Notes: a model not told the origin generated them from the sequence alone. A stretch of DNA of 63,939 bases, filler included, from Kipferlia bialata (GCA_003568945.1; 6 parts of 6 records of this genome joined end to end with filler, not necessarily neighbours in it), one strand, 5' to 3'. Shown: positions 1,403-63,939, counted from the first letter of the whole stretch. Program-made: numbers and translations.

Positions 1403-4400
1403 GGTAACGGTTTCACTAATAGAAGATAATGGGATCGCGAACAGTATCACGATACCTGAAAGCCCTTCTGTTTCTGAGCCAGAACACATAGGCATTGTAG
1501 GCAGCAATGGTGTCACTCCTGGAGGGTGAGAGACAGAATCAAGGAAATACATTGCAGGTGTATAGTAAGACAAACATGCATAATATACCTAGACCAGTGC
1601 AAGGTATACATACTTAAGAGAGTTAATAGTCGAGGATAGAAAATACTTGAGCCGAGCACAAAGTGTGTATATCCCGAGTGATATACTATAGATACCCAGA
1701 ATATACCTAGACCCCAATGCAAAGTGTGCGTGTGCCCTAACTGTGGGTCCCATGTTGGTGATGGGGGCCTTGATCGGGGTCTTTCTGTCACAGACAGCAG
1801 CAAGGATGCACCCGGCCTCACCAACACCTGACTAATAAGGGGCCAGAGGGAGAGACTTGAAACAAACTCAATTCTAGAATAGTGCATACAGATACAGTAC
1901 CTACGCATGCTGAGTACAACGCCAGTCTCACTGCCCTGAGTGATAGGGGCACTCTACTGGTGACAGTGCCCAGGGGGGTGAGTCTAGGGGGGTATCCGGA
2001 GGTGACACAATCTGCTGATCTCAACTGAGCAAGGGCATCGCCAATCCTGACAGTTAATATATGTAATACACACTGTATAGAATTCTACGCGACGTGTAGA
2101 TGTACCTAGTGGGCTCTGGTGGCTCTGGCATGTTCTGCAGCAGGTATCAGTTATAGTGCGTACCCTATACGATATGGTAATATACGCGATATATGTATAT
2201 ACCTCGTAGGCTCTGGTGGCTCAGGCATATTCTGCAGCAGAGTGATGGGGTTGCTCTGTGGGACAGAGAGACAGGAGAGGAGAAGGGGGCCCAGACCACG
2301 CCGCCTAGAAGGGTGAGAGAGAGTACTTGTCAGCAGGGGGCATATGCCACATCCTATTTAGGGGTGAGAGTAAGACAGAGATTATATGTCGCTTAGCAAT
2401 GATGCATTGCAGAGAGTGAGGCAAGTACAGTTTGAGAATGGGTGTGATTAAGCTTAGAGTACTAAATGATGAGTCCATTACCTGACCTCAGGCCTGGCCC
2501 TGGCTGGCAGCCAGTCCAGTCTGGACACATACGAGATGGCAAGGCCTGGGCCGGTGCGGCATGGGGTCAGAAGACATATATTTTGTATTGATATTTCATT
2601 GTAGATATATATTGAAATTTATGTAGACAAGGACTAGTTGGAGGATCGATATAGATGCATACTGGTAGATCTCCGTACCTGTGCGCCCTGCCCTCTGCTT
2701 GACCACATCTGACCCGACAAAGGTGACAATGAGCTCTTCGCCCTAGGGGTAAGGGATGACGAAGATATATACTCACGAAATGTAGGGACCACCACAACAG
2801 GTAGAAGGATACGACAACAAGAGCGAAATATACCTGTCTGGTAGTTGAGTACCAAGCCTCCTTGGTGACACACAGGTCTAGCACGACATCGACATCGGGC
2901 ACAGTGATGCTGGACTCGGCAATGGAGGTGGCCAGGATAACCTAGGTTAAGACAGAGAGAGAAGGAGATGCTAGATGAGTAGATCCATCACCACTAGTTA
3001 AGTTGGCAACCACCCACCTTGATCTTGTCGGTCCCCTCAGGCAGAGGATCAATGGCAGCTCTCATGGCCGCATCACTCAGACTACTGTGCAGAGCCCTGA
3101 CTGCTACATTTTTGGCAGATGGGAGGGCAGATATGAACCTAAGGTGAGGAGGGTAACGCTAGACGCTATCGTGTAGGAAAGCGTTACCTTGCGAAGTCCA
3201 TGACCTGTCCTATGCCTGACACAAAGACCAGGATGGCCCTGGGTTTCCAAGGGGTATCATCCACTACAGCAGGAGTGGCACATACACTTGACTGTTCAGC
3301 ACTAGTACCGGTCTCTCTAACCTGGGTTAGTTTCTCGCTCGAATACTTGATATAGCTCCTCTACCATTCTATTATGTGAGACTAACCTGTGTACGCATTG
3401 CTGACAGTCCCCCCTCCACCCTCTGTACCCCGCACTGACCGAGGGTCAGGGCACCGGAGGCAAAGTCCTGAGTTTAGAGTGAATATACACCTTGATAATG
3501 ATATATAGTCAGTAACAAGATGCATTTATATTGTCATCTGACCAAGAGTCAGGGCACCGGACGCAAAGTCCTGGTGTCAGTATCCTAGATATATCGCAAA
3601 CAGTATTATAGCTGGCTAACAGCGGTGTGGATAGCATTGGAAATGTGACCATCCACTGGGCAATTACAGGTAGTATAGTATACAATTAATGCACTAATAC
3701 CTCTACTAGGCACAGCACACTGGCCATGACTGTCATGTGCACACGGACAGGCTTCTCTGAATATAAGAAGAGTACTGGAGTAATAGAGAGAAAGAATATA
3801 TGGATATACCATACCGGCCTTTGCGGGTCCGTTGGGAATGCTCTTTGGGGCCATCAGTTCATCGTCCACTGCTGGCCACCCACGCTCTAGTCCTATGGGG
3901 TAAGGGTACCAATCGCGTAGAATCTAAAACCGACGCGTAGTAGAGGGAGATAGTACGTACCCTTCTGCAGGTACCTCCTCACAATTGGATGGTCTAGGAG
4001 CAGGTGGGTGATCGGGTAGCCTCTGGTGCGGACCTGTACAGTCGCAACCTCGCCTAGAGAGTAAGACTCAACGAGTGGTGATAGTACCGCGTAATTGTTG
4101 TAGTACCTGAAGGAGCCTCCAGTGCCAGCTGTGCAAATGCATCCATGGTGGATCCTGCTGGGCCTGGACGCACTGACGTTAGCCAACACATCTAAAAGAG
4201 TATGAATACACCACTCACAAGAACTATAAACCACCCTGTACCTGAAGTGAAGTAGTCGATCAAGGGCCTTGCAAACAGAGTGGCCGACATAACAACAAGG
4301 CGGGTCCTGAGGGTGAGATGACAATGTATGAAAACTGTATATGCATATGAATGAGTGAATGATGGGAAACAGAGATGGACATGCCTAGGCCACTTCTCGA

Positions 4401-7400
4401 TGAGTCTCTTGGCAAGGTGGAGACAGAGGTCAACCTCTAGAGTGCGCTCATGTACCTGTATATGAGAATATCGCGTAGTTTTGAGAATCGTGTAGACAGT
4501 GGTACCTCATCAAACACTATGATGTCTGGGAACCGTCCACCCTCCATCTGCAGGGCTAGTAGGTCGTCACCAGTAGGCATCTGGTCAAGGGGTCTAGGGG
4601 TGAGTAGAGAGATCAATAAGAGTAGCTACATACATAAAGTCTGGATGTCATTGCTACTAAAAGAACCCACAAATGCATGGCGAAATACCCTGAATAGTGC
4701 AACAGATGGTGTACATAAGGTTACTCACTTTGCGGACCGATGAGCAGCAGCCTCGGCATCGACCATGGGATCTCTGAGGTTAGGAGTAAGGAGTACATGA
4801 CATCAACACTTGATACGTACTAGGAGTCAAAGACTCATCATAAGCATCTAGCAATGTACCATACCTCTGCGGGAGGTTGAGCAGCCTCTCCAGAGTGGAC
4901 TTGAACACACCACATGTTGTGTAGAGGATCCTGCTGGCTGATGTGTACACAGGTCTCCCTCCCACATAGTACCCCACAATGGAGCCAAGGGGTCTCTGAA
5001 GGAGAGCGGAGACATGCATGGCTAGCTGCACTGGAGAGTCAGAAAACTAAGCTTATCATGATACATATACAGTAGCCGTATCATCTACGGTGTACGGTGT
5101 ACCTGATGGCAGTCTACGGTGCTGTGCCACTACTATGAAGGGAGGGGGCTGGCCGTCCTGGATCTGGGCATCTAGGGTCAGTGCTGTAGTACATTATCAA
5201 TAGTAGTATCTACATCAGAATGGAACTCATATCGAGCGAAACGTTTAGAGCTCTTCCAAGATTGGTATATAGGGAAGAATATAGTAAATACATACATCAT
5301 ATATACCTAGTAGGATGAGTGGGGCTATGCTGCTCTTGCCTGCCCCAGTGGCAGCATGGACTAGGGTTGTGGAGTGGGCTCTGGGATAAGTAGAGCCTAG
5401 TATCCGCCGACAACCGGTATACAATGATTCATACCTGACACTGTCTACTAGCTGTTGTCTCTGTTCCATCATGCTGTATGCCTTGACCCTCTCCAGTGCG
5501 GCACTCACACTATACAGACTATTATATATATATATATATATATGACATACTATATAGTATGCATACCTTACACTATCTACCAACTGCTGTCTCTGCTCCA
5601 TCATACTATAGGCCTTGACCCTCTCCAGTGCGGCACTCACACAGCTCTTGAGGTAGGGGCCACTCACATCGGCAAAGCCACCTGACATTAAAACAGGAAC
5701 ATATATTTACAAGAGAAGTGGATAGAGTTAGAGACAGAGAGAGAGAGTCCCTACCTATCTGGGGTGCCCCTGGTAGGGGTACATGGGGTGGTCTCTTGTT
5801 GAGAGATGCCCCACTCCTGATGTACACAACGTCATCGGGGGATCGCATCATGGCGCCTCTATCAATTAGCAAAGTATTATACCATTTTCATGTGGAAACA
5901 ACTCAATTATCTTGTATTACCTTATGATGAAATACTACAGAGAGGATAATATGGCATACTAAGGATTGGAAAGTAATTGGTATTACACACCATTGACGAT
6001 TATGCTAACTACACTGTTACTATATTCATAGATCCTCACCTGACCCTGCTGACCACAGACAGCACTACCAACAAACGGGTGGGGTCACTGGGGTAAGGGC
6101 TTTAATCACTAAGTAAAGATTATACTGCTCTCCGTAAAATCTCTACCAGATCACTATGGAAAGATAGAAGTTACATTACTATACACATACCCCTTCTTTC
6201 GTGGTATGAGCTTTGTCCCCCTCAGTCTCACGGCACCAGGTGGGGGGGAGGGGCGACAGGCTGGGGTCAGTATTCATTTCAAACGGGAGACAAACAGGAC
6301 ATATAATGGCATCAACTATTCACATATTCGTGTGTGTATATGTAAATACATACCTGACAGGAAGTCCGACAGTGCCTTCCTCAGAGTGGACAGGTCCTCA
6401 TAGGTCAGAGGGGTGCCCTCCACAACCTGGTTGTTAGGGTACATATGCATATAGATGGGATCAGGTGTAGATATTCAATACATATATGTATAGTCACACT
6501 TAATACATTAGTATTTGAGACCAATATCCATACAATCCATTACCTGCTCCCTCCTGTCACTGACTCCCATCACCAGATGACCGCCATGGGTGTTCAGGTA
6601 CCCACACGTGTATCTGAGGGTGAGAGGCAGCAAGACCTCTAATAGCGTTCCAATTTGTAATGGGCAACACTCAATAGAATAGGCAGAGCAGGAGAGACAC
6701 TGTATATATGTAGATACAGATACCTTGAGAGTTCCTGCAGAATGTCCCTCAGGAATGACTCCTTGTCACGTCTCGAGTAGGACCTATGCGCCTAAGGGGT
6801 TAGAACATTGTCGTATAGACAACTGTTCCAAGACGTATGAATGGCTCACCTTCAGCTCGAAGTACTGTCCCTCACTAGGACACTTCCCTGCGAGTTGATG
6901 TCCCACCCTCAGCCGCTTGGGTCTCTTATCCTTCTTCTCTGCCTCTCCCTCTCCCTCTCCAGGAACCCCCCCTATGTGGCTACCACACACGCCCTTTCCC
7001 TTAGGTAAGGGCACCTGTATACGGGCCACCTTCTCTCCCTTACGGAGGGTGCCTATGCCCTGGGTGTAAATGGAAACAGAAAGGATAGATATCGAGTCAC
7101 ATCCCAACACAGTAATGAATGTATCCCTATAATTTATGTATTGGTGTATATCTACCTGACTCATCAGACTGTCTACAAATGCAGTGGCATATATATATAT
7201 ATATATATATATGAGTATATGTAGAGAGTTATATATATATATATATATGCATATACACACACCTGGTTCATTAGACTGTCCACAAATGCAGTGGCATATG
7301 CTGCATCCTCGACATCGGACAGAAAGGAGGACCTGACAGTCAGTGTATGGATATAGACATATGAAAATAGGCACCAATACATGTATGGATATATCTGAAA

Positions 7401-8335: not shown

Positions 8336-11300
8336 GTGCCGCCTATGTCTTCCACCTAGACAAGTCAGGCAGTTCCAGCCTGGGACCATGGGAGTATGTG
8401 CAGGTACTATATGTATATATATTTGAGTGTATGTATATATATCATATATATGACCATGGGGCTGTGTGCAGGTATACATAGACATTCTATACATATATAT
8501 ATATTCATATGTGTGTATATATGTACATAGCATTCATACATAGACCATGGGACTATGTGCAGGTATTGTATATATATACGTATATGTATATATTGATATC
8601 CGATGACTATTATATGAGTATATATTCAGCCCCATGGGACTATACTCAGGTACTTTATGAATATTCATGATTGTATCTATATAGATTACATATATATATG
8701 ACCATGGGACTATGTACAGGTATATATATTCTATATGTATGTATATATACATATATGTATATATGTGTGTAGTATATATGCATCTACATGGGGTGGCCCA
8801 TGGTCCTACGAGCAGGCTCCCTAGTTCTGCCAGTACTGTCTGGTATAGTACATACTTCATGCAATAGTACTTTGTTAATAATCACTAACCCCGGTCCCTC
8901 ACCCAGCCCAGTATACTTTTCCAATATATACTATATACTGCTTACAATGACCATCTATATACAATGTATTGTAGAACGGTGATAAAGGATGCTGACAACA
9001 GTCCCTGACCCAGCCCAACACAGAGTTCATGGGAGTGTCAGTGGCCATAGAAGGTATATTAGTATTCTTTGATGGTCATGACATGGATGGTCTTTCTCTC
9101 TTTCTCTTTTCAATTTAGTATAGATAGTCACGATATACGATATGGGTATATATATGGTTCACCTTCGTCTCTCTTTCTCATTTCTATTTGGTTCCCTCTC
9201 ATCCTTTCAGGAGACTGGCTAGCTGTGGGCGCCCCATCTCAAATAGGGGGCAAGAGCAGTGTGTTTATGTACAAGAGGTGTTTATTCATCACTACATTAC
9301 TATTTACTAGTGTAATCTATATATATATGTGTTCTTGTGTGGGTCTGTCATTTCCAAAGTATATATATATATAAAAATGCTCGGTATGTATGTGTATGTA
9401 TATATGTAACCTCTTCTCATGTCAGGTCAGGGTGTGTGTTAGTCCATGCCCAGACGAAGATGCACAAACACATTTAATTATATTGTTACTATATTTTTAC
9501 TTAACCTCTATTAATGTCAGGTCAGGCGGTGTGTTTGTACATGCTCAGACACTGACCCACCCAAGTACCCCGGCCATAGACTCATTTGGCCAGGTGGGGT
9601 TGAATCAATACTATGACATACAACCAATACAATGACTGTATATGCATAGACATGGTACATATTAGTAGCCAGAGAGTCATTTGGCCAGGTGGGGTTGACT
9701 AGACACACATGGACGATATTTGTGTTAATAGGGACTATCTAAGTCATTGTCCTGTTCTTACCTTCAGGCAGTTGACATGTACATCGATGCAGAGACATCT
9801 ACTCTGGCTGTTGGATGTCCAGATGACAAGGAGGACAGGTAGGGTCTTCTTCCGCTCTTCGTGGATGGTTCTGTGGATGAGCACCCCACTACTCTCTCTC
9901 TCCCTACACCATTCTGAATGTGATCTGTCCCTTTTCTCATTCCAGCGGTGCTGTGTATGTGTACACCCTGTCCAGTGGTGAGTGGATCACCAAGAACACC
10001 CTGACTGCCACCAAGACTGGCCTCTGGGGATACGGGTACTCACTCACGGTGGAGAAGGTATAATATTCTATATGTATAGTAATATATAAGTATACATATA
10101 TATATATAGTACATGAGTTGTGTGTCTCTGGGGATATGGGTACTCACTCACAGTAGAGAAGGTATATAATAAGAGAGAGAGAAATATATAGTATGGCAGA
10201 GGGAACACGTATGTTTCCTATATCTCCATCTCTGGGGAACGGGTACTCACTCACGGTGGAGAAAGTGTGGACTCATATATACGCATATGAATATATGCAT
10301 ATAGTATTGTAGTACTATTCAGTGTCTTCAGTACATTCCCCCACCCTCAGGACACCATTGTGGTTGGGACTGAAACTGGGGGTGTGGTGGAGGTGCACAG
10401 TACAGGTATATAGGGAATACATTCTCTCCATCTGTAGTGTCCGTGTTATTCAGTATATGCACTGGTTCAGGTATAGTAGTGTTCATACACACTCTCTACA
10501 TACACCAAGTGTATAATACTCTATACGTATATATATATGTATAAATATCAGCACTGACTTCCAGATGGCGACAGGTGGGTGTGGCAGAATACCCTTCAGG
10601 TCGAGTGCGAGGGTACCCTCTCTCTCTCCCTCCACCTGGATAGCGATAGAGACACCCTCGCTGTTGGGTGCCAGGACCTTTCAGCCGGCAAGGTAGATTC
10701 TATTTCAGAGTATCATTTGACCATATACTTCCAAGGTTTCTCTGGGTTACTCTTCTACAAGGTATTAGAGTTGTCTCTATCTGGCGTCGAGTTAAATACC
10801 GTCTCTCACCTATCAGACTCGTTATGCCGGTGGCGTCACCACCTTCTACAGAAATGGTGCTGGTGTCTTTGGAAGTGGGACCCTGATAACTGGGTCCAAG
10901 TCATGTAAGTGATGGTATATTTAGTATAATATTCACATATGTGTCTATCAAGTATATGTCTCTCTCGGAGCCTCAACCTGACACCAGACTCCTTCTTTGG
11001 TGCTGGTGTTGTGGTGACTGGGTCCAGCTTGTATGTTGGTATCCCAGGTGTGTACACATCTGGATACATCTGTAAGGCTCTTCAATATAGTGAGTATGGG
11101 AGTTACTGCCAATGATCCTACTATTGGCCCTTTTCTCTCTGCTGTGTCTCTCTCTATTGTAGTGTGAGAGATATTCTACACTACTTGACATATCTGCATT
11201 GTCTCTCATACTTCCAGGAGACAACAACTTTGGTGGCTCTGTGTACACCTTCCAGCACAACAACCCTTACAACGAGGACACGTGGCAGATTATGGACGCA

Positions 11301-12161: not shown

Positions 12162-12261
12162 NNNNNNNNNNNNNNNNNNNNNNNNNNNNNNNNNNNNNNN
12201 NNNNNTTAATTAATTAANNNNNNNNNNNNNNNNNNNNNNNNNNNNNNNNNNNNNNNNNNNN
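12162..12261. other. Artificial scaffold-concatenation linker
   Basis: 44 N + TTAATTAATTAA (stops in all six frames) + 44 N; the identical 100-bp unit occurs five times. Confidence 0.98.
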
Positions 12262-36996: not shown

Positions 36997-37292
36997 GGGA
37001 TCGTACTCAGACCCCAGTGGCTCTGAGAGCTACCGCAGCAGTAGGCATGGAGACCAGTATGACAGTGAGTACACAGACAGTGAGGGGTACAGTGACAGAG
37101 AGAGTGAGGGGGAGAGTGCCTCCAGCGACAGAGAGAGAGAGAGTGAGAGTGACAGAGAGTGGAGCCGGCTGGTGGAGGACACCTCCATTGCAGTGATAGA
37201 CGACATGATCAGGTGGGTCTCTCTCTCTCTCTCTCTCTCTCAGTATCTGATCAGACTATTCTCCATGCTGGCATGCCTGGGAAGGAGGACAC

Positions 37293-37329
<37 letters not shown>

Positions 37330-43065: not shown

Positions 43066-43105
<40 letters not shown>

Positions 43106-44237
43106 CTTCAAGGTGCTGGGTGAGTACATACATATACAAACTCTCTCTACTATACATATATACACATCCACCCACCCTGGCCATGACCACCTCGGGTGAT
43201 GCATCCCCAGTGGGGGTCTCGGCCACAATGTGCTGGGGGGTAAGGGAATGTATATCAACCAACAAATATCTGTATTTATCTCTATAAATGAAATATATTG
43301 TGTTTATATGTGGCCACAATGTGTTGGAGGGTCAGTTAGGCATATGCAAAATATACTCTCATATATACACAATCATTATCCATACACCCACATCCTGTAC
43401 ATACCTGTATATCGTCCAGAGCATTCATAGCTATCAGCCTCTGGTGGTCTGGCTGTATCTCACTCCGCTGGGCAGCCAACTCAGCACGCCGCAGGGCAGC
43501 AAGATCAAGCCTAATCGTGAGATAGAGTAGATCGTATGTAGTGTGCGTCCTACAGAAGCGAGGCACTGACACATTAATAGGGAGACGACGTCCTTTCAAT
43601 ATTCAGCTCCAGTGATAGTATAGCGTACATGTGTCAAAGTAGCAAAGGGATACTGCAAGTACACATTGCATATACCTCACTGCGTGTGGGGCTGGTGGGA
43701 GGGAGGGTAGCTTTGGGGGGACAGGGTGCTGGGCCTGAGTCAGAGGGAGAGAGAGAGTAGATATAACGGGGGGGGGGGGCGAAGGGCGGAGCAACATCAC
43801 ACTGAGATGGATGTACAGTTGGGGGTAGGGTGGGTATAGGGAGAGAACGAGAGAGAGAGAGAGCACTACCTTCTTCAGTATGTCTGCTATTCTCTCCAGC
43901 TTGTCTATGGTCAGCCTACGCTGCAGACGGGTGGCCTTGACCACATCGGTCCTGGGGTGGGAGAGGAGATCAGACACATACATAGTGTGATACTGTATTC
44001 ATACGTACCTCTGCCTCAAGTCTGTGGCCCTTATCCTCATCTCCTGGACATGCACATGGGAGGAGGCTGGGGTAAGAGGTCCCGTCCACATGAGTATAGA
44101 TGACGAGTAGTTGCATTACCTGTCCCTGTGACGCACTCAAACACCCTCCTCTCCCTGTCCAACAGACCCAGCCTCAGGGCATTCACCCGGCCAAAGGCAG
44201 CCTCAGTCTGCGTCACTGACACTTGGGACGTGTCCAT
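41355..44237 (-). CDS. Hypothetical coiled-coil protein, multi-exon (contains an N gap)
   Basis: MDTSQVSVTQTEAAFGRVNALRLGLLDRERR…, RLQRRLTIDKLERIADILKK, LDLAALRRAELAAQRSEIQ, …TRVVETLRTTVT*; canonical splice sites. Confidence 0.65.
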
Positions 44238-48978: not shown

Positions 48979-49215
48979 AATTTTTTTTGTTTTTTTCCCC
49001 CCCCCCCCCCCCCCCAACGTCAGGATGAGGCCTCTGCCTCTGTCTCTCTCTGACACTCTACTGGAGTACATACATGTGTCTATTGTATGTAAATATGCGT
49101 CTATACCTAATGTCAGGATGAGTCCTCTGCCTCTGCCTCTCGTGACACACTACCTATACATACCTGTTCCACATATGTTATATATGTACATGCATGTATA
49201 TGTGCATAACCCCAG

Positions 49216-52200
49216 GATGACGCCTCTGCCTCTGCCTCCCTGGACCCCCTGCCCATGCTGTATCCCACCAACCAAGTCAAGACAACAAAGTACAGCGTGG
49301 TCAACTTCATACCAAAGGTGGGGGGTGTATATTTAATACTTCTCTATTGTACTATAGAATACTATAGTATAATCCTCTTGTGTATAGTGTCTCACTACCA
49401 AGTGCAGCGTGGTCAACTTCATTCCAGAGGTGGGGTATAGTTAATACTATATTGTATTATAATATACTGTAATATAGTACTCTTGTGTATAGAGTCTTGC
49501 AACCAAGAGCGAGTGTGGTCAACTTCATACCAAAGGTATTGTTCTCTAGTGTGACTGTGACTCTATTTATATTGTGTATGTTGAGTATATTTCGATAAGT
49601 GGTAGAGTCTCTATCACTGCAGTGTTGTGTGTAACCGTGTTGATTATACACCCCTAGCTTCTATGGGTCCAGTTCAAGGGTGTATATAATTAGGTTCAAT
49701 ACATAAATATTGGTGTTTGTGTGTGTGTGTGTGTGTGTTTTCCTCACCCCCAGCTGCTGTGGGACCAGTTCAAGAGACCCGCCAACCTCTTCTTCCTGGT
49801 CACAGCCATCGCAGACAGGTACTTTGACCGATATCTACACTTCTTTACGTATGGTGTATATATATTATATACATTATAAGGAGTTTTATGTGATGCTATG
49901 ATACCCTAATCCCAGTATTCCTGCCCTGACTGTGACTCACCTTCATCATATATTTATACCTTGTTATATTTATACTTATACATTGGAACATAGTGCCAAT
50001 AGTGTTTACTGCCCTGACATCAGTATTCCCGCCCTGACCGTGACTGCCCCCTTCACCTTCATCATGCTATATTATATATATATATATATATTCGTAAATA
50101 TTATATGAGTATCTATATATATTTATATATGCATTGCAATATGAACTCACTCCAGTATCCCTGCCCTCACCGTGACTGCCCCCTTCACCTTCATCTCCCC
50201 CCTGATATTCATTGTCGTCATGGCAGCAGTCAGGGAGGCACTGGACGACATGAGGAGGTAATGATGATTCGNNNNNNNNNNNNNNNNNNNNNNNNNNNNN
50301 NNNNNNNNNNNNNNNNNNNNNNNNCGATATATATATTCATTTTATGTATATGTGTGTATGTCATTGTTGTCATGGCAGCTGTCAGGGAGGCACTGGATGA
50401 CATGAGGAGGTAAGAAGAGATATACATAGTGTTTATATTGTGTATGGATATTGTATGTATTATACGTCTGGGTCATGGCAGCTGTCAGAGAGGCACTGGA
50501 CGATAAACGGAGGTAGGGCAGGATACAATGTATTCTCTTGTATATAGTGTAGATGTCTAACCCTTACCCCAGGAAGAAGGCTGACGTCACAGCCAACGCA
50601 CCCACCTTTGAAGTCATCAGGTACAGTGAATGTAAATATATTTATGTTTCTATTCAACGATATTGTATGTATCTGTTCTCCAACTCTATAGGCACTCTGA
50701 GTCTGGGATGGATCCTCTACCCAGGGCAGATGGAGAGAAGGAGAGAGAGAGACCTCAGCAGACAGGGAGGGAGAGAGAGGGTGACACCCAGACACTCACT
50801 GTGGCCAGCAAGGATATCCTAGTAGGGGACATTGTGGTGGTCAGAAGTGGGGCAGAGGTATGCATGGATAGATCCTATTTACTCATTTAGTACTTCAGAT
50901 CCCTGGTGACCTTGTTCTTCTGTCTTCCACCTTCTCCTCCATGCATTAGTCCCTACAATCTATATATTACTGATATTCTCTGTTTTATTGTCTCATTCCT
51001 CAGGTCCCTGCTGACCTTGTGCTATTGGCCTCCTCCAACACTGACAACTTTGGATACGTCCAGACCGCCAACCTGGACGGAGAGAGCAACCTCAAGGTCC
51101 GATGGTGGAGTATGAAATATTGTATTTATGGGTACCACTCTCCAGTAACCTCTAGACCGTAGCCTTTGCACTCTACCTCTCTCTCTCTCCCTATATATAT
51201 ACGTATATATGTGTTTTTCTAACTCTTAGGCCATTGCCTCCATGGACTACACCGCTGAGTGCTCATCCATAGACGACCTGTCGGCACTGTCACTATCGGT
51301 GTCAGGTACCCTTGTTATAGCTACTTATATATATATTTAGAGTAGTAAATTCACATGCTGTATCGACCTGTCGGCACTGTCACTATCAGTGTCAGGTGAG
51401 TGGAGTGTGGGTTCGCATAAACATCAACATGTCGTCTCTGCTTCCTGCTCCCTCCATATTCCTCTCATAACCAGCCCCTGCCCCGAGTGCCAGTCTCGAG
51501 GTGTTCAGTGGAGAGATGAAGGTATGGTATCTATATGTATATGTGCATACAGGTATTATTACTGCTCTCTACCTGAGTACCTTCCCTTACCTCCAAGATC
51601 AACCTCAACTCCCTCCCCGAGAGAGAGAGAGGCAGCATGGACGTATCAGTCACACAGAGCAGCACATGCGTAGGGTCATCTGTGCAATATGGGTAAGTAC
51701 TGATTCTGTATGTGAAGCAGTGCATGATACTATATCCCTCATATATACACTATATTCCCCTACTCACTCCAGATCTCTGCTGATCCCCCAGAGTGCCCCT
51801 GGCATGCTGTCATTCAGACCAAGGTATATATAGTAGTATATACGCATATCTACCTCTTACGTCCGGATACCCGTACTTTCATTCAGATAGAGGTATGAAT
51901 TACACAGTGTATCATTACTATGTATATCTGTGTACGCCCTAGATACTGACCCCAGGGACCGTAACTCTGCCGTATTATTATACATACACACACATACCGT
52001 ATATATTACTATCACTATGTACACATACACCCTGACCCAATGGCCGTACTACATATATCATTCACTATACTGAATATTGAGTGTTGTACACATGTATTGA
52101 CCCCAGGGGCCGTACCTCTGCCAGCAAGGAGAGGCGCAGCAACTCTTTACATTCTCCATATACCCTGTTAGTATGATATATTGTTTGTACCGACCCACCC

Positions 52201-55200
52201 CAGAGGGCGTAACTCTGCCAGCAAGGAGAGGCGCAGACAGCAGAAGCTGAGGAAGTCGAGGGAGAGGAGGCTCAAGCACCAGAGAAGGAGGAGCTTCAGG
52301 TGCATTTCCAGTATGTACTTGTACATGAATGTTGATATATAGTATCCTAATGCCCCCAGAACCTTCCTATTTCCATGTATATCCCATAACAGTACATCTT
52401 TCTGCTAATACTCGATACCTTTTACCCCTGTATGTGTTCATTCATGTTCTAACCCCCAGGACCTTCCTGCCCAAGATGCCAAAGATGCCAAAGATGCCCG
52501 CTATGAAAAGGAATGGCAGCAAGGTATGGATATATAATAGTATATATAACTTACCATATGTATAGCATTTCTCTCTTTATATGTAGTCTCCTGTTTACTC
52601 ACCCCCAGTCTGCCGTGTCCACCCCCCCTTTCTTTCCAATCTTTGCATTGTATATATATATATATTGAAATTGACCCTTGCCTCATCCCCAGTCTGCCGT
52701 GTCCACCCCCTCTCTCGCTACATTATATATATATACATATGGTGTATGAATAAACAATGAATGTATATTTGTGTTCTCACCCCCAGTCTGCCCTCTCCAC
52801 CCCCTCTCTCCCCGTGGCCACCACCTCTCTCCATCTCTCTCTCTATATATATTCATATATATACTCGTACTCACCCCCAGTCTGCCCTCTCCACCCCCTC
52901 TCTCCCTCTCTCTATATGTATGTGTGTTACTATTATATTATTCCATTACGTATATTCATAACATTTACTAGTTTTGACACCAGTCCGCTCTCTCCACCCC
53001 CTCTCTCCCCGTGGCCACCACTGAGAGGAGACAGGCTGAGAGAGAGAGAGAGAGGACAGAGCTGGAGGGAGAGAGAGACGTCTCATACGGCTCAATGACT
53101 AGGTCCCTCCCTGCCACCCTCAAGCACATCCCACAGGTATTACATATATGTATGTCTTCTACATAGTATGATTATTCTTTTACATATCCTATACCTGCCA
53201 CTCTCCCTTACCTTCTACGGTTAGGGGGGGGGGGGAGAAGTTATAATTGTACTCACATATTTAGTCTCATAAGCACATCCCACTGGTATATGTGGATCCT
53301 AATTACAATTCATATTCACATACTAATATAGTTTTGCACTTACCCCCAGGCTGCGGGTGATGATGCCCCCCCTGACCTTCCAGTGGACTATGCAAGGTAG
53401 GGAGTCTTTCATATATGTATATATACATACGTATATGTTCACGAATACATATATATATATATGTGTGTGTAGGTAGAATTTAGTGGACTATGCCAGGTAG
53501 GGATTCATCATGTATTCATTCCTTTCAAATAGCACACACATGTCTGGATCCTGTGTCATTATTATTAGGTCGTTTCAATGTGTAGGACACATCTGCAGAG
53601 ATCTCTAGCAATACACCCCCTAATGCCAGGAGGGGTGACGTTGTTGCTGTCCCAGTTGGACTAGGAAACATGTTGTTGAGGGGCACAAGGCTGTGCAACA
53701 CAGACGTCGCATATGGACTGGTGGTCTACACAGGTATGATTCAACCTCTCCCTATATTGGGCCATTGGGTACGCTAGTTAAGATATAACATATGTCCTAT
53801 ACTCTGTGTCTCATGTCTAGGCCACCAGACCAAGGTGTACATGAACACAGCCAAGCAGCCGAGCAAGACATCATTCCTGGAGGCTAGGTACAGAGTGAAT
53901 ATAGGTCCAAGCAGTACTATGTATATTTATTGTCTTTCACACCAGAATGAACAAGATGGTGATTGTCCTCTTCTTCCTCACCGCCCTTGTCATATTTGCA
54001 CTGGCAGTTCTTCCCGTCACAGTGGCACAGGAGGTACAAATATAGATATATGTACATACATATGTACATAGAATGTGAGATAGAGAGAGAGAGTGTGTAC
54101 CTTATCTATTTGCACTGGGAGTCCTACCCGTGACAGTGGCCCAGGAGGTATGTCCTGCATGCATCAGATATATACATATATATACATATATAGATAGATA
54201 TATACAACACGGTCCCAGCACTCTTATACTCCAAGCCAACCCGTTGGTACCTTGTGAAAGAGAGAGAAAGAGTGCTTTTAGTGTATACACATACTACCCC
54301 GTTTTCACCCAGGTATCCACCTATTGGTACCTGTCTAGTGCTATCTATAGAGGAAGTGTTATGATTTATCTTGTGTGTCCCTCACCCCCCAGGTCTCCAC
54401 CCACTGGTACCTGGTGGGTGACTATGCCATGGACACGGGCATCAGACTGTATGCTACACGGTACGACAACAGGATATAATAGTCCGGGATATCAGTATCT
54501 AGACGCTTCTCATTTCTGTATACATTAAGATATGTCTCACCCTATGTTCTGTGTATATGGTACTCACACCAGCACCATGGAGTACATCCATCATATGTCC
54601 AGTATATAGTATAGTATTATGGTATTACTGTTACTCACCCCAGCGCCATGGAGTACATGATTCTGTTGAGCTGGAATATCCCAGTCTCACTATTTGTCAC
54701 ACTGGAACTGGTCAGATACCTGCAGGTACTGAAGCATGCTATGAATTCAACGTACTATATGTACTCCATATGTATTTTACTATAAACCAGTCTCGCTCTT
54801 TGTCACACTGGAACTGGTCAGATATCTACAGGTACTATACTGCCTTCATTCATTTATAATTGTATATATAAGTATTTATATATAGACGTGCCACTGTCTT
54901 CACCCTGCCAGATATGTATCAATATATATTCTTACCCCCTAGGGCCGCATGATGGAGTGGGACCAGCACTGTGTATTGACAATCTGTATGTATCTCCCTC
55001 TCTCCCTCTATCAATACATCTCTTTCTAACCCCCTCAGGGCCGTATGATGGAGTGGGACCAGCACTATGTATTGACACTACACATATACTCTCTCTCTAA
55101 ATATACTCTCTCTCTATATATACACTTATATATACATACTTATACCAGGGCCGCATGATGGAGTGGGACCAGCACTGTGTGGTGGAGTCCNTACTTATAC

Positions 55201-58200
55201 CAGGGCCGCATGATGGAGTGGGACCAGCACTGTGTGGTGGAGTCCAGGGGAGACCATGGGCACATACTGGCCCAGAACAGTAACGTCCTGGACGACCTGG
55301 GCCATGTTCAGATTGTTGTCTCAGGTATAGCTGTGTATGTGCACTCTTGTGGATTTTCAAGCCCATATGGACATAATGTGTATGTATTTGAATGTATTAC
55401 TATAACCCCAGACAAGACTGGGACCCTGACCTCCAACGAGATGGTGTTCCCAGTTCATTACTATATGTTGTATCGTGTATTATATTTATTTCTTTAATAC
55501 TATACCGTGTATATAACCCCAGACAAGACTGGGACCCTGACTTCCAACGAGATGGTGTTCCAGCAGTGCTGTCTGGTGGAAGGGGCACCAGTAGACAGCG
55601 AGGAGAGTGAGACAGAGGGAGAGAGAGAGAGAGAGGACAGTGAGGAGATGACCCATGGGGAGGGTCTGGAGAGCACAAAGTACTCAACGGAGACAGGGAC
55701 ACCGGACCTCAGGTATATATATATAATTATTATTATTATAAATTTGCTTCCTGCCTCACTCGCAGCCACCCCTACCGTGTCCACCCCATCAATGCCACAG
55801 AGGATGTAGAGGGTACAGAGGGTGGAGAGCCCAGCCCCACCCTGGACACATTCTTCCTGTCACTGGCACTCTGCCACTCCGTGCTGCCACAGGTGTGTAT
55901 ATATATGTATATATATGTGTGTATGTGTGTGTGTAAGGTGTATATTGTACTTAAATACACCCGTCTCCCTGGCACTCTGCCACTCCGTGCTGCCACAGGT
56001 TCACTACAATGCTATATTATTGTATTTATGTATTAGTAATTGATTCTCGTGTATGTATTAGTAATTGATTCTCGTGTATATATGTAAACTCAATTATTGT
56101 GTATATCACCCCCAGCGCGACATGGATGAGCGTCTTATTATGTATTGGTATGTCTACCCGTCTAACATCAGCCCGACATGGATGTCATCGGCATGTACTC
56201 CCGCAATGAACTGCTTTATATATATAAATATTCATGTGTGTGTGTATGTATCTCTGTATATACCAGTATATGTCCTCCCATCTAACATCAGCCCGACATG
56301 GATGTCATAGGCATGTACTCCCCTACTACTATATTGTATATATATATATGATACATGCAATGTCTATATATACACATATTTTCATTAGTATGTCTATATA
56401 TATATTAGTATGTCTACCCGTCTAACATCAGCCCGACATGGATGTCATCGGCATGTACTACTCCCCCATTACCATATTATATATATATATAATACATCCA
56501 ATGTCTATATATATATAAATATGTCCCCTATCTAATATTAGTTTGATATGGAAGTGATTGGTATGTACTCTTTTATTATAATGTATATATATATATATAT
56601 AATATATGTATATATAATGTATATAAATATATTAATGTGTTCCCCCGTCTAACATCAGCCCGACATGGATGTGATTGGCATGTACTCCATCATTACCATA
56701 TTATATATAAATATAATACATCCAATGTCTATATATATATTAGTGTGTATATCTGTCTAACATCAGCCCGACATGGATGTCATTGGTATGTACTCCCCTA
56801 TTGCTATATTATATATATATATATAATACATGCAATGTCTTTACATATATATTGGTGTCTAACCCCAGCCCGACATGGATGTCATTGGTATGTACTCCCC
56901 TACTACTATAATATACAGGGATATATATATATATATATATATCCCTGTCTAACATCAGCCCGACATGGATGTCATTGGTATGTACTCCCGTAATGAACTG
57001 CTGGTGGAGCAGGATGGAGAGGAGGAGAGAGAGATACACGTGGCATACTCGGGCCAGAGCCCAGACGAGATTGCACTGGTGGACGCTGCCAGGTATCATG
57101 TATAGCACTTCTCTATCTATCTATATATAGCTATATTTATCTATACATATATATACTATATTATTCTATCTCGGGCCAGAGCCCAGACGAGATTGCGCTG
57201 GTGGATGCTAGGTACAAGAATATAGTATGTATTGATAGACATAGGTACAAGGTACAGATATAGCACTTCTACATAGTATTCCAAGAGATAAGGAATCGTG
57301 TATCCGTTACCTTACTCTCAGGTCCAATGGCTGCACCCTCCTAGCTAGAGATGCCTCCTCCCTCTATGTCCTGATGGGTACACCCTGTCCCAGGACAAGG
57401 GTCATCAGGAGGTTCAGGGTCATCACAGTGGTACCATTCACAAGTGACAGGTATGGACTTACATGTAATGTATCAGTCTTTGACTGCCTCGCTCTGACGC
57501 CCAGGAAGCGCATGAGTGTGGTACTTGAGGAGCTGGTGCCCAGTCCCCACCTCTTTGGTAGCAAGGTATCAATCAACAGGATTATAGATATATAGATATA
57601 TATGTGCATTGGGTATTAGACCACTTCTGACCCGCCTCCGCCTGTTTGGGAGCAAGGTATTAGATATGTGTATCCAGAAGGGTTTGTATGTACAAATACC
57701 ACTGACACCAGGAGAGAGAGAGACTGGACGAGCTTGGCGTATTCTCCAGAGTGCTGCCCGGGGACTCTGAGAGCCCAGTCCTCATATGCAAGGTGGGGAG
57801 TGTCAATAGTATATGTGTATAGTGGAGTAGTATATTGCGCATATCCTCATCCCCCAGGGTGCTGACTCCCACGTGCTCCCCCTCTGCCGCCCTGCCTCCC
57901 TGTCTGCTGGCATAGACAGTGCCATACACGACTACAGCTGCCAGGGACTCAGGACACTCGTCATGTGCCACGCTACTATACACGGTGGGTATCAGTAGTA
58001 TACTATATGTATTTGTGGTTGGTCGCTCATTAGTATCACTCTTACCCCCCAGACCTTGAGGCCCTTGACCTGTTTGTCATCAATTATATATATATATAGG
58101 TGTATATACTAATATATATATATGTATATGTATACTATTGGTGTCATCTCTCCCTCTAACCCCTAGACCTCGAGGCCCTTGACCTGTTTGTCATCAATTA

Positions 58201-58383: not shown

Positions 58384-61038
58384 ATCGTATAGAAGTGCTA
58401 TATTGTTGCTCATTCTACATAGTTCTGACTGTCAGGAGTTCGAGCAGGCTGCAGATGGACTCGAGCAGAGCCTCACACTCATAGGTAGGGGGTATTACTG
58501 CCTTCTAAGACACATATTCGCATTCTCGCCCTTGTATCCCATCTCTAAAGCGGTTACATATGTGTGTGTGTATACTATATACTATGGAAAATCTACTCTT
58601 ACTTACCCCCAGGCGTGACTGATAGTGGACTGATACTGATGACTATACTCTATATATATATATATATATTCGCTACTTACTGTAAGGCGTGACTGGTGTG
58701 GAGGACAAGCTGCAGAGGGGCACTATATACACTATAATATGTATTCTATATTACTATATATTCATATATCATATATATATATGTATTACTCTCTAACCCC
58801 AGGCGTGACTGGTGTGGAGGACAAGCTGCAGAGGGGTGTCCCTAGGACACTGGAGGCACTCAGAGTTGCAGGCATCAAGGTACCTTTGCCTCATGTCATT
58901 CATTCATGTATATACATTCGTATTCAATATATTGGAGGCTCAGGGTGGCAGGCATCAAGGTGATTATGCATCTATATATATAGATATAGATATAGATATT
59001 CATATGAATGAAAGGATATATATACCATACACTGGAGGCACTCAGGGTGGCAGGCATCAAGGTACGTATACATCCAATAATGTAAGTATTTATGGGAGAT
59101 ACATATATACTTACCCCCAGGTGTGTACTCTGACCGGTGACAAGAGAGAGACTGCCATCAACATTGCATACAGCAGCCAGCTGTTCCCACAGGTATGGGT
59201 ATACCTATGTATACATGTGTGTGTATGTTACTCTTTCTCTATACAGTCTATATAGTACACTGACACGTCCAACTGTTCCCACAGGTATGTTTACTTTTTA
59301 CTCTCTCAACCCTGGATATGTAATGTATATTCTTTCCTCTTATCAATTTCTTCCTCACCCTTAGGTCTGTGATGTGCACTGTATTATTGGGATGTACTCT
59401 AATTTTTCTGTAGGATGTGTTATGTGTAATAATGTATCTTACCGTTAACCCAATAGGTCTGCGATGTGCACTGCATCATAGGGGATGAACTGGACGATGA
59501 GGCACTCGACATGTACGAGGACGAGGTACGGCATTGTTATGTATATATATATATGTGTGTATGTATATGAATACGCATTGTATGGACGTTGACGATGTAT
59601 GGCATTGGTATATCGAAGACTCATTCCTTGCTCTGGTACTCACACCCAGGTGCAGCGTGTGACCACTGCCCAGACCCCCTCAGCCCAGCCCAAGGAGGGG
59701 GTGTTCCCCAGCATACCAGGGCAGGTGTGGATATAAAGATATATATACATAAATATACTTTTCTTTTTTATTGTGTTGAGGGTGCTGGTAGTGTGCTCCT
59801 ATATATATCTTCTCACCTGTTGTAAAGCTGTCAGGTAGTGCAGTATGCAGTGTGCGTATGTGTGTGTCTCTCTCTCTCTGATGCATCAGGGTGACTATAT
59901 GTCTGTCTTGTATCTTTAGTGTGTGAATGTATCTCTGATGTATCAGGTTGAGGACTCCCAGGGCAGGGAGAGAGAGAGAGAGTCAGTGAGGGAGAGGGAG
60001 AGGAGTGACAGTGTGCAGAGTGTGACTGGTGGCCCCAACAACTGTCTGTCCTCGGTGGAGATGGAGAGTATGCAGAGACAGGCGTTGACAGAGGCTGCTA
60101 GGACAGCTATTGAGGGGCTTAGGTACCTTTAGTGGATTGTTTTGTTGTTGATCTCAATTGTATGTACACACATGCCTCTGCCTGGCCACATCCTCTAAAT
60201 TCTAACACCTCAGGACAGCCCTCCAGGCCCAGAGGGCACTGAGGAGGGAGAGACGGTCCGAGATGCCTCAGGTATATATATATGTATGCATGAAGTGACT
60301 ATACCATAGATGTATTCATTCAATGAGTAGTCTTTACATGACCACCCTGACGCCAAGGTCCTTTTCCTCGATATAGCAACATAATAATTGGTATACTAGG
60401 CCTTGTTCAAAAGTGTATATTATAGAGTATAACCCTGACACCTAGGTCCTTGTCATCGATGGCCGTGCCATTGCCATCCTGGAGGAGACTGGGCTGCTGG
60501 GAGAGCTCATAGGTACGTTACGTGGGTGTGTACAATTTTCTCTGTATTCCTGTATCGAAGTTATCCGCCCATGGGGGAAGAATAGTATACTCAATAGCCA
60601 CCCACCCCCAGGTCTCACTGAGCCCTGTGTGTCTGTACTGATGTGCAGACTCAGCCCAAGGCAGAAGGCACAGGTGAGCGTGTATGTATAATCTGATGAA
60701 CTATATTATACTATTGACTGTATATATAGACAATAGATAGTCAGGACAAGGCAGGAGGTACAGGTGAGTTCATTTTCTTTTGTACCATTGGGATTGAGTG
60801 GTATGGTACGTGCCCGAGGTGTGCCAGTGTATTGGAGTCCGTATGATACCGTATATTCACCTTACCCAGGTTGTGTTGAATGTCAAGCAGGGCCTCAAGC
60901 TCAACACACTCGCCATCGGAGACGGAGGTATTGTATATATGCATACTGCAATTCTCTCTCATAATATAAATATGTATATATGTATGTGTGTGTGTATACA
61001 TCTATGCCGAGCCCCTGACATTGCCATGATCCAGGAGG

Positions 61039-61092: not shown

Positions 61093-61192
61093 NNNNNNNN
61101 NNNNNNNNNNNNNNNNNNNNNNNNNNNNNNNNNNNNTTAATTAATTAANNNNNNNNNNNNNNNNNNNNNNNNNNNNNNNNNNNNNNNNNNNN
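61093..61192. other. Artificial scaffold-concatenation linker
   Basis: 44N-TTAATTAATTAA-44N. Confidence 0.98.
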
Positions 61193-61403: not shown

Positions 61404-61786
61404 GACATTGACTCTGGTGTCTCCAAGACCATTAGGAAGCAGGAGAGAGAGCAGATGAGGAGGATTGTCAAGGCAACGGCTGGAAAGCCAGGAGTCATTG
61501 AGGTATCGCATCGTGTGTATTTGATTAGCGAGGAGTCATTGAGGCATGTATATTTATATATTATACTGAAAATATGATCTCTCTCTCTATATATAAGGAG
61601 TATATATATGTGAGGATTGGCAAGGCAACGGATGGAAAGCCAGGAGTCATTGAGGTACAATTACTGTCATATGTGACTCCTCCCGCTCTCTCTCTGGCTC
61701 TCTCTCTCTAAATATGTATCTACATATCTATATTTTATGTATAGTCTAACCCCAGGCCATCTCCATCGATTATCTCCCCCCCCCTC

Positions 61787-61823
<37 letters not shown>

Positions 61824-62018
61824 CCACTCACCCTAGGCCATCTCCATCCATGTCACTCTCTAATTATCTATCTACATATATATATATTTATATATCCACT
61901 CACTCTAGGCCATCTCCATCGATTATCTCTCTGTCTCTGTCTCTCTCTCTCTCTCCCCCTCTATGTATACATATATATATATATATGTATACCCTCACCC
62001 TAGGCCATCTCCATCGAT

Positions 62019-62059
<41 letters not shown>

Positions 62060-62089
62060 CCACTCACCCTAGGCCATCTCCATCGATTA

Positions 62090-62122
<33 letters not shown>

Positions 62123-62311
62123 GAATGTACCTTCACTCTAGGCCATCTCCATCGATGAGGCCCAGATCAGGGATTTTTTCTCTAGATAATAGTAACACTC
62201 TATTATTTCTGGATTATTACAATGCAGCTTCGTGTTATGTCTAACTCTAGGCCATCTCTCTCTCTCTATATATATATATATCCACTTATTCTAGGCCATC
62301 TCCATCGATTA

Positions 62312-62347
<36 letters not shown>

Positions 62348-63574
62348 CCCTCACTCTAGGCCATCTCCATCGATGAGGCCCAGATCAGAATATATATACA
62401 CATGAATATATATACACATATATATGTATGATAGTATGTATATATGTGTGTCTTCACTCACTCTAGGCCATCTCCATCGATTCTCTCTCTCTCTCTCTGT
62501 GTATATATATGTATATATCCACTCAGTCTAGGCCATCTCCATCGATGAGGCCCAGATCAGAGACCAGGTGGTGGAGGGGGTGCTGGCAAAGGTGTGTTCA
62601 TATATATATATATATATGTATATATATATGTGTGTGTTTGTGTTGCCCAAGGTATGGTATAGCGTCTCTCTCTCCCTCTCTCTACCCCCTCATTCTCAGG
62701 CTGGGCGTCTGCTCTCTCTCTCTCTCTCTCTCTCTCCCTCTCTCTCTACACCCTCATTGTCAGGCTGGCCGTCTCCTCAGGATGTCCTCTCTCTCTCTCT
62801 CTGTATATATGTGTGTATGTGTATATATATATCTCTCGCTAGCCCCTCAATGTCAGGCTGGGCGTCTCCTCAGGATGCTGGCGCTGCTCCCTATATCTCT
62901 CTGTGTGTGTGTGTCTCTCTCTCTCTTCCTCTCTCTCTAGCCCCTTATTGTCAGGCTGGCCGTCTCCTCAGGATGCTGGACATCATGGCAGCTGGGGCAC
63001 TAGGTATTGTATATATATATGTATATAAATATGTTGTGATAAGTAGATAGATATATATATATAGTATACTCAGGATGCTGGACATCATGGCAGCTGGGGC
63101 TCTAGGTACACTATATTATATATATACATATTATACATATATCTATATGTACTGGCTTAGTCGGGAGAGAGAGAGAGAGAGGGAGAGAGAGAGTATACTC
63201 AGGATGCTGGACATCATGGCAGCGGGGGCACTAGGTATTGTATATATATATGTATATAAATATATTGTGATAAGTAGATAGATATATATATAGTATACTC
63301 AGGATGCTGGACATCATGGCAGCGGGGGCACTAGGTAATGACAGTATATTCATACATACATAGATATATATGTAAGTACACACATATACACACATATATA
63401 TAGATTTATAGACACCTGTAATTGTTTGTATATTCACGGTAAGGAAAGAATACATTATGCTCTCTCCTTCTACACCCTTATATCAGCCACTGCCGGTATC
63501 CTCTACTCCCAGCCCTGGAGAGAGATGCTGGTGGAGATGAGTGCTGACAAGTACTTTACGGAGCCCATGATCAG
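61404..63574 (+). CDS. Internal exons of an unknown gene (61404-61502, 62532-62591, 62955-63003, 63487-63574)
   Basis: Phase-consistent splicing gives DIDSGVSKTIRKQEREQMRRIVKATAGKPGVIE|AISIDEAQIRDQVVEGVLAK|AGRLLRMLDIMAAGAL|ATAGILYSQPWREMLVEMSADKYFTEPMI; no family recognised. Confidence 0.7.
61746..62531 (+). repeat. Intronic array: 10 decoy copies of branch point-AG|GCCATCTC(CATCGAT) before the real exon at 62532
   Basis: Copies at about 61755, 61836, 61908, 62003, 62072, 62141, 62250, 62294, 62359 and 62466, each followed by (CT)n/(TA)n spacers. Confidence 0.93.
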
Positions 63575-63765
63575 GCATGATTATATATTTATATACATAC
63601 ACATACACCCACCCACCCACACACATATATATATATATATATAATCATATATAGATATATATACTCATGTATATTGATGCTGGTGGAGATGAGTGCCGAC
63701 AAGTACATCACAGAGCCCATGATTAGGTATGAGTATATATATATACATATACGCATAGACACACC

Positions 63766-63797
<32 letters not shown>

Positions 63798-63888
63798 CAT
63801 ATATACATATGTATAGTCATGTATATACATAGAGTATGTATGTTGTGGAGATGAGTGCTGACAAGTACTTTACAGAGCCATTGATCAG

Positions 63889-63939
<51 letters not shown>

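Follow-up and report, generated by a model that had tools for sequence, protein, structure and literature searches.

Mutually exclusive exons of the Dscam type are whole exons in tandem that carry both splice sites and are used in the mRNA, and intron gain by genomic duplication was reportedly described by Gao and Lynch in 2009. Closer to the present case are minisatellites that span a splice junction, such as those in human F7 intron 7 (37 bp), LMNB2 (100 bp) and PDGF intron 4 (81 bp), together with those in CBS and the interferon-inducible gene 6-16; in F7, LMNB2 and PDGF, the repeated sites look functional, and only the outer authentic donor is used (PMC1557585). In Caenorhabditis elegans, furthermore, an extended break end that has not annealed is joined by polymerase theta (PolQ), which leaves tandem duplications of ~100 bp to 10 kb (PMC8654963). 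Here, we examine the introns of Kipferlia bialata in a window of 63,939 nucleotides, filler included, which is made of six contigs of GCA_003568945.1 joined end to end and to which every count below is confined. In this window, partial copies of exon ends, hereafter called echoes, lie in the introns beside their exons and differ from them mainly at silent sites. The layout is already known from the F7 type, whereas the silent excess, first noticed in an initial annotation of the window, the density and the spacing are features that we did not find in print. Our literature searches, subscription journals and most supplements aside, yielded no such echoes in Kipferlia and no silent excess beyond the null of a neutral copy.

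The survey was based on 11 gene models with 163 introns, which were obtained with a small predictor and curation and are free of internal stops; single-exon genes, a short gene around 35200-35900, a gene around 27400-28400 and some terminal exons lie outside these models. Splicing of one gene, that of a P4-type ATPase, was checked against an RNA-type contig, and in the other ten genes the frames were taken from the continuity of open reading frames and the live copy was assigned by the rule that the outer site is used. Each intron was aligned ungapped to both flanking exons with codon-blind scoring, simple repeats masked and a score of 12, a single scheme on which all survey counts depend. This gave 106 raw segments versus 0.6 in mismatched exon-intron controls. 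After removal of overlaps, 101 segments were left, which together with six from four terminal part-introns make 107 echoes in 66 arrays: 45 of donor type, in which an exon end is repeated downstream, and 62 of acceptor type, in which an exon start is repeated upstream, with lengths of 12-76 nt. Echoes are present in 51 of the 163 modelled introns and in 49 of the 67 that have at least 150 nt.

When each variant was counted once per array, a few indels being scored as substitutions, 179 distinct differences were obtained: 121 were silent, over 519 silent sites, and 58 were replacements, over 1486 replacement sites. The proportion of differing silent sites (pS) is 0.233 and that of differing replacement sites (pN) is 0.039, which gives a pN/pS of 0.167 (95% interval of 0.116-0.240 by bootstrap over arrays; 0.11-0.33 over genes). 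If the exon were frozen and its copy neutral, a silent share of 0.26 would be expected, and 0.41 if the neutral copy lay next to an exon under constraint. The share observed is 0.68 (P = 8e-13 against 0.41), and nulls aware of sequence context give 0.27-0.30 and 0.43-0.47, respectively. A constrained exon with a neutral copy, which the initial annotation had named as the outcome that would undo its inference, is hence not sufficient in this unbiased survey (0.68 versus 0.41). We therefore confirm that the silent excess is strong and beyond the neutral-copy null, while the initial description of the differences as almost only synonymous is an overstatement, as about one third of them are replacements and contig 2 holds 2 silent against 11 replacement differences. 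Two biases of mutation were rejected as the cause: 22 silent differences lie in a CpG-type context, but the nulls rise only to 0.30 and 0.47, and with a transition bias of kappa 10 the pN/pS is still 0.22.

Between classes of echoes, pN/pS changes little (0.18 for the donor type, 0.15 for the acceptor type; 0.16 in the 43 arrays with a single echo, 0.17 in those with several); the stretch of the ATPase gene that was checked with RNA gives 0.11 (37 silent, 11 replacement), and leaving out any one gene gives 0.15-0.19. By gene, the silent and replacement differences number 21 and 3 in a helicase, 13 and 2 in an unnamed minus-strand gene, 58 and 22 in the ATPase, 8 and 7 in a repeat protein, and, on contig 2, 0 and 7 in a kinase-like gene and 2 and 4 in a kelch gene; pS varies among genes (P = 0.0002), and pN is even (P = 0.23). 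Ordinary tandem duplication, that is, a neutral copy by a constrained exon with a silent bias inflated by picked examples, would fit contig 2 as well as the short echoes of 12-24 nt, in which pN/pS reaches 0.39. For the window as a whole, nonetheless, we regard it as highly improbable: the P of 8e-13 becomes 9e-6 when the 12 arrays quoted initially are left out (72 silent, 47 replacement; pN/pS of 0.22, 0.15-0.33), only 0.3% of the gene-level bootstraps reach 0.5, and the detector is unbiased in simulation, where a neutral-copy null passed through it gave a pN/pS of 0.46-0.60.

The quoted examples themselves could be reproduced. All differences are silent in 5567-5640 versus 5435-5508 (9 of 9, the peptide being unchanged), in 3435-3467 versus 3538-3570, 10022-10057 versus 10126-10161, 50211-50257 versus 50363-50409 and 56959-57000 versus 56172-56213 (3 of 3 each), and in 54681-54725 versus 54787-54831 and 59457-59483 versus 59365-59391 (4 of 4 each). 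The two replacements in the counter-example 61613-61654 and the indels in two copies (a loss of 1 nt near 10234 and of 2 nt near 58933) are real as well. Of the differences confined to a single echo, at positions where another echo agrees with the exon, 27 are silent and 15 are replacements, against an expectation of 25% silent, and silent codon changes of two steps (TTG/CTA and CGT/AGA) are present. None of the 57 replaced codons is a stop, versus ~2.5 expected, and three frameshifting indels were found in echoes, versus 0.8 expected. Replacement differences lie closer to the cut end than silent ones do (P = 0.0003), as alignment overrun would have it, and the true pN/pS is therefore, if anything, lower.

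An echo unit is a tandem repeat of ~100 nt composed of an exon end of 12-76 nt, one splice signal and an AT-rich spacer of intron length. The splice dinucleotides are kept, with AG before 59 of the 62 acceptor-type echoes and GT after 40 of the 45 donor-type ones, and the acceptor matrix score is 6.05 in echoes versus 5.69 in real acceptors. Even among the 30 echo acceptors in which at least 4 of 12 positions are unlike those of the live acceptor, 21 keep the branch motif, which is found at 11% of other intronic AGs. The exon part and the splice signal are duplicated, and the intron part is often unalignable: the flank matches the intron of the live site at p <= 0.02 in 6 of 39 donor-type and 22 of 50 acceptor-type echoes, and the intron beside an echo is on average only slightly like that beside the live site and often no closer than random introns are. 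The spacer that separates an echo from the live site measures 48-95 nt in 97 of 108 units, the shortest echo-free intron being 49 nt; the repeat period has a median of ~102 nt in both types, echo length and spacer length are uncorrelated (in a comparison of fixed period with fixed spacer), and unit lengths are not biased towards multiples of three. AT makes up 70% of the spacers, in which TA runs abound, while the rest of the intron (61%) resembles echo-free introns (59%). Fewer of the acceptor-type spacers contain a donor-like site (6 of 51 versus 33 of 88; P = 0.0015), a depletion to which base composition may contribute in part, and the branch-acceptor motif occurs in 0 of 36 donor spacers versus 6 of 88, a difference that is not significant (P = 0.18).

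Given that the ~100-nt period is near a common short-read length, that the assembly is fragmented and that N gaps lie inside two arrays, one might suppose that a second haplotype or strain had been written in tandem by the assembler. We compared read contigs with 48990-56500, using a DNA-type run (X1) that is possibly the source sample and an RNA-type run (X2); 16 of 3803 pieces were listed, and such contigs drop rare variants and minor isoforms. Four X1 contigs, assembled from raw reads by another method, span exon and echo with 0 differences and an even depth, namely 49000-50063 (depth 374), 50350-52649 (453), 53224-54163 (two pieces of one record; 445) and 54209-54968 (469). Among the pieces listed, furthermore, only three other letters occur in 7.5 kb, all within one repeat. 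The mis-assembled second haplotype, which the initial annotation had itself raised, was accordingly not seen in these short-read contigs, and an artefact is barely credible, the copy number of near-identical arrays aside; it is to be kept in mind that X1 may be the very sample that was assembled.

The same pieces gave no sign of a second haplotype over the 7.5 kb of the ATPase stretch, and the strain therefore looks haploid or homozygous there. A second copy of at least 85% identity was likewise not among the pieces listed for this stretch, which disfavours paralogs as the origin of the echoes; of the two origins proposed initially, diverged alleles or paralogs, it is the alleles that fit best. 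The genome paper of K. bialata reports 124,912 GT-AG introns, and in the main text of that paper "duplicat", "heterozyg" and "ploid" have zero occurrences (PMC5874029).

Whether echoes are used in splicing was judged from the ATPase gene, in which the exons of 49216-55892 are the part checked against an X2 contig of 4569 nt. X2 is not on record as RNA; it was classed as such by an automatic guess, and it behaves as spliced. All 14 listed offsets of the contig fit the gene model (49213-55887), and the ATPase mRNA hence joins the outermost (most upstream) donor to the outermost (most downstream) acceptor; each offset is a single intron, so that the duplicate makes no new spliced intron, and none of the echo micro-exons proposed by the predictor is present in this main contig. 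The use of echoes in splicing, another suggestion of the initial annotation, is accordingly not seen there (14 of 14 offsets are echo-free, minor isoforms being beyond the reach of such contigs). An unspliced X2 contig at 49044-49229 with a depth of 2.7, which takes in an acceptor echo and reaches the first exon modelled for the ATPase, is either pre-mRNA or DNA.

These data bear on the idea that the echoes are under weak protein-level selection in place, through rare in-frame use in RNA or reciprocal exon swapping. A tiny cost would suffice in a huge population, and a per-site model with the cost set at 10-30 times the mutation rate of a site yields a pN/pS of 0.29-0.13; the full strength of the splice signals and the absence of stops among the 57 replaced codons would be in keeping with it. 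Of 23 bins with echoes, 11 have a greater X2 depth than exons alone would give, and 12 have just that depth; in 10 of the 11, repeats at least double the DNA depth as well, the exception being 53257-53507 (14.7 versus 10.5). Around 54763-55264, the excess about equals full use of the echoes, which are near-identical there to the exon start, while the offsets of the main RNA contig exclude them. Indeed, all echoes are skipped by that contig in the checked part, and the shortage of partner donors, the frameshifts and the indifference of unit lengths to multiples of three also speak against such use. We know of no route by which half an exon would replace an exon end in frame, and we consider selection in place an unlikely explanation.

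The initial annotation had also proposed a reservoir, in which gene conversion or array collapse swaps the echoes back into the gene and thereby purges replacements. Expansion of arrays in place is clear, as in 61756-62481 and in a unit that is 96% identical over 100 nt, and large arrays cycling through the live position could in theory lower the ratio. A replacement, however, arises only in the echo, whereas both copies can acquire silent changes. Since one-way conversion or collapse clears the two kinds equally fast from those copies that are still observable, pN/pS stays near one half. Indeed, simulated conversion between two copies gave 0.54-0.59 in any direction and six simulated settings of clonal expansion and collapse gave 0.51-0.92, versus 0.17 observed. 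The bias is about equally strong in arrays of one echo and in those of several (0.16 versus 0.17), and within the long DNA contigs listed, which drop rare variants, no branch of the collapsed form was seen. The proposed swap-back is thus very unlikely to account for the bias.

A further possibility is that echoes are snapshots in place that change several times more slowly than the silent sites of the exon, owing to exon-biased mutation or to repeated re-synthesis of the live end. No second allele would then be necessary, and an exon changing 8-fold faster yields a pS of 0.24, a pN of 0.04 and a ratio of 0.17; 3-fold and 5-fold faster exons yield ratios of 0.28 and 0.26. In the array of 56172-56902, moreover, the two echoes nearest the live exon match its silent sites, and the farther ones differ. 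On the other hand, the spacers around echoes look fast-changing, and the acceptors of echoes have diverged from the live ones yet look functional, which a frozen copy does not explain. To our knowledge, no process mutates an exon while sparing its intronic copies, and slow snapshots seem to us quite improbable.

We favour, with a probability of about 0.55, the reading that the echoes are mis-resolved recombination products of diverged working alleles, followed by a short neutral decay. Two alleles with a silent divergence of ~0.2-0.3 and with unalignable introns would recombine, and a broken end could pair only within an exon. Synthesis from the paired end would traverse the partner's intron and stop shortly inside the following exon. 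The extended end would then fail to anneal over the short mismatched overlap and be end-joined to the end that keeps most of its own intron. Such a joining would produce the acceptor type in the order of core intron, echo, intron-length spacer and live exon, the mirror event would produce the donor type, and one allele's exon end with most of one intron would remain as the duplicate. Selection would leave as survivors those products that lack the partner splice site and have a short exon piece; unequal exchange would enlarge or renew existing arrays, the neutral decay of which would be brief, and the TA-rich introns may be those that break. We infer from this scheme that the silent bias was inherited from the time when both sequences coded, rather than maintained in the intron.

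Simulated settings of a captured allele, passed through the same detector, gave a pN/pS of 0.18-0.24, and a simulated recombining population gave 0.08-0.12 at high and 0.48 at low diversity. An even pN with an uneven pS is what one would predict if a short decay shared by all genes were added to an allele divergence that differs by locus, and the silent bias of echo-private differences, the multi-step silent codon changes, the three Ile codons of one array, the divergent but intact acceptors, the unrelated flanks, the depleted partner donors and the frameshifts fit the copying of alleles. Aborted strand-annealing repair with polymerase-theta joining is a possible though rather doubtful candidate for the specific route. 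Metamonads are described as without classical end joining and fornicates as without Rad51A in PMC8516963, in the Supplementary Data 2 of which, with columns taken by position, K. bialata is listed with Spo11, four Dmc1 entries, Rad52, XPF, ERCC1 and PolQ and without Rad51A, Ku70 and BRCA1.

Several points weigh against the capture of alleles. Contig 2, with its 2 silent and 11 replacement differences, runs counter to it; the replacements are not significantly conservative (P = 0.20), and the tight spacer of 48-95 nt and its TA enrichment are only partly accounted for. By our own reasoning, a simple panmictic coalescent should spread pS among echoes, but pS is not overdispersed across the 50 echoes of at least 28 nt (chi2 = 57.5, 49 df, P = 0.19), which would suit exchange between deeply split lineages better than one mixed population. 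The silent diversity of ~0.2-0.3 that would be needed is extreme, and as the strain looks haploid or homozygous over the ATPase stretch, any such recombination would have to be past. A donor allele was not seen: two small runs under the same species label gave no contig on 48990-56500, which is evidence neither way, metagenomes searched with the single-exon gene 25127-27037 gave no Kipferlia-like copy, and with an acyl-CoA synthetase exon as the query none of the 80 loci kept out of 212 matches was Kipferlia-like, the top identity being 49%. Finally, the P4-ATPase model alone was checked with RNA, and the simulations are small and illustrative, with one seed per setting in the population runs.

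Of the individual loci, the gene of a DEAH-type helicase on the minus strand has a working exon at 5567..5681, the 3′ end of which is echoed downstream, in a gene model without internal stops; a Helicase_C match below the cutoff lies on another exon. Its echo at 5435..5510 (-) is the longest of donor type, with 76 nt, 9 silent and no replacement differences, followed by GT and with a spacer of 56 nt. On the same strand, there are an acceptor-type echo of exon 3467-3387 that has a branch-acceptor motif of its own (3538..3570; 3 silent, 0 replacement), a donor-type echo of the exon end 2240-2203 that is new to the survey (2106..2143; 4 silent, 0 replacement) and an acceptor-type echo of exon 1244-1151 (1303..1336; 1 silent). 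We also noticed that the helicase intron 2561-2678 (-) has as its best-fitting 3′ end a typical branch-acceptor motif ending in AT, not AG, with an in-frame AG 15 nt further on; it may have a non-canonical acceptor or a base error. On the plus strand, two donor-type echoes of the exon end 10022-10057 occupy 10126..10263, the second with a 1-nt deletion, and a donor-type array at 8452..8719 stands behind the exon ending at 8403 of the repeat-protein gene, which looks FG-GAP-like by eye and of which the single exon scanned had no Pfam match. The differences in this array are mostly replacements. In one codon of 8384-8719, C stands in each of the three scored echoes in place of the G of the live exon, the residue being Asp in two echoes, Gly in one and Glu in the live exon; judged from these letters, the exon near 8403 may have changed or been replaced after the array was formed.

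The two counter-examples on contig 2 are on the minus strand: ten echoes with 0 silent and 7 replacement differences at 17976..21343, in the kinase-like gene (named by eye), and six with 2 and 4 at 22005..24025, in the kelch-repeat gene. Within 20620-21387 (-) is a near-whole copy of the 36-nt exon 21423-21388, in which the donor is present but no acceptor; it is fused behind an acceptor echo of the next exon, and an N gap lies within the array. Five echoes with 7 silent and 4 replacement differences belong to an unnamed low-complexity gene at 37274..39112 (+), and six with 13 and 2, including the two-step Arg codon change CGT/AGA, to the unnamed gene at 42062..43323 (-).

The P4-type phospholipid-flipping ATPase (PF16209; 49216..60927, +) has 38 modelled exons and 43 echoes with 58 silent and 22 replacement differences. 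Two acceptor-type echoes of exon 50156-50257 (49916..50063, +) are skipped in the RNA contig, two donor-type echoes of the exon end 50209-50257 (50361..50503, +) lie outside the cover of that contig, and the donor-type echo of the exon end 54676-54725 (54782..54831, +) is on the same DNA contig as its exon. Further downstream on this strand, seven acceptor-type echoes of exon 56959-57092 at 56172..56902 include three Ile and two Val codons among the copies, and the acceptor-type echo of exon 59457-59525 at 59365..59391 has 4 silent differences in 27 nt and a flank unrelated to that of the live acceptor.

The densest arrays, with 20 echoes, are found in the gene of contig 6 (61404-63574), two exons of which were scanned with no Pfam match. 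Nine near-identical acceptor-type echoes before exon 62532-62591 form a recently expanded array at 61756..62481 (+), three donor-type echoes of the exon end 62962-63003 are at 63064..63334 (+), one unit of which is 96% identical to the live unit over 100 nt, intron included, and two donor-type echoes of exon 63487-63574 are at 63678..63888 (+). Two modelled introns start with GC, at 63575 and 31499; at 63575, the live donor is GC, yet both downstream echoes have GT. Contig 3 (24518-36652), with an acyl-CoA synthetase, an actin-related gene and long single-exon genes, has 18 modelled introns and no echo and holds only two TA runs, which indicates that the echo load is regional. Adjoining intron-free kelch-like genes are at 13305-14348 and 15245-16342, and the protein of the latter has two relatives among 1048 candidates, both from K. 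bialata, with 78% and 37% identity. The window is otherwise eukaryotic DNA rich in introns, and its unrelated contigs are separated by N linkers with a 12-nt stop spacer (12162-12261, 24418-24517, 36653-36752, 48879-48978 and 61093-61192), at which five joins genes are interrupted.

If the echoes do stem from alleles, the diversity and recombination of a population would be readable from one genome, in a lineage for which we came across no second isolate. The sequence would then be evidence that a free-living fornicate has sex or parasex, and the echoes would offer a natural read-out of how a cell listed as lacking Rad51A and Ku70 repairs its DNA. More broadly, and somewhat short of even odds, the introns of Kipferlia may be an archive of the working alleles of others, left by routine recombination of hyperdiverse alleles with unrelated introns. 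Such an archive would extend to thousands of introns, and a haploid-looking genome would record a silent diversity of ~0.2-0.3 and past sex; echo formation would be the main force that replaces and lengthens introns and could seed micro-exons and introns. Whatever their origin, echoes account for most long introns in the window, mislead gene prediction (the small predictor called several as micro-exons) and represent many natural constructs of splice-site competition, in which strong upstream acceptors are skipped. This skipping points to exon-level recognition in an organism with short introns, and its reduced spliceosome has 87 of 174 proteins (PMC6679479).

In comparison with known systems, intron gain by tandem or internal duplication (PMC3443670) resembles the present case in that a duplication within a gene reshapes its structure and lengthens introns; in Kipferlia, however, the duplication makes no new intron but lengthens one that is already there, and splicing passes over the duplicate site. 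Joining by PolQ, as in C. elegans helq-1 and BRCA1 mutants, would give a head-to-tail duplicate of a stretch copied in repair, with sizes from ~100 bp, but the duplications in C. elegans are copied from a sister template, identical to it and ~1 kb in the median (PMC8654963). The template in Kipferlia would be a diverged one, and the size is tight near 100 nt. The intron repeats of earthworm metallothionein are a different case. Exons of the Dscam type also lie next to copies that differ mainly at silent sites; echoes, in contrast, are half exons with one site, the branch-acceptor motif being in 0 of 36 donor spacers and donor-like sites in just 6 of 51 acceptor spacers, and they are absent from the main RNA contig of the ATPase. 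The likeness is closest to the F7 type, as the Kipferlia unit repeats a splice junction into the intron (AG in 59 of 62, GT in 40 of 45) and the outer site alone is used in the ATPase (main RNA contig, 14 of 14 offsets). In the cases cited in PMC1557585, on the other hand, the repeats are on the donor side at few loci, and the repeated sites of F7 are identical. Echoes in Kipferlia are on both sides and in about a third of the introns, mostly lack near-identical multi-copy monomers (43 of 66 arrays have a single echo, while a few such as 61756-62481 do have them), often have unrelated intron parts, and differ in their exon parts at silent sites beyond the neutral-copy null.

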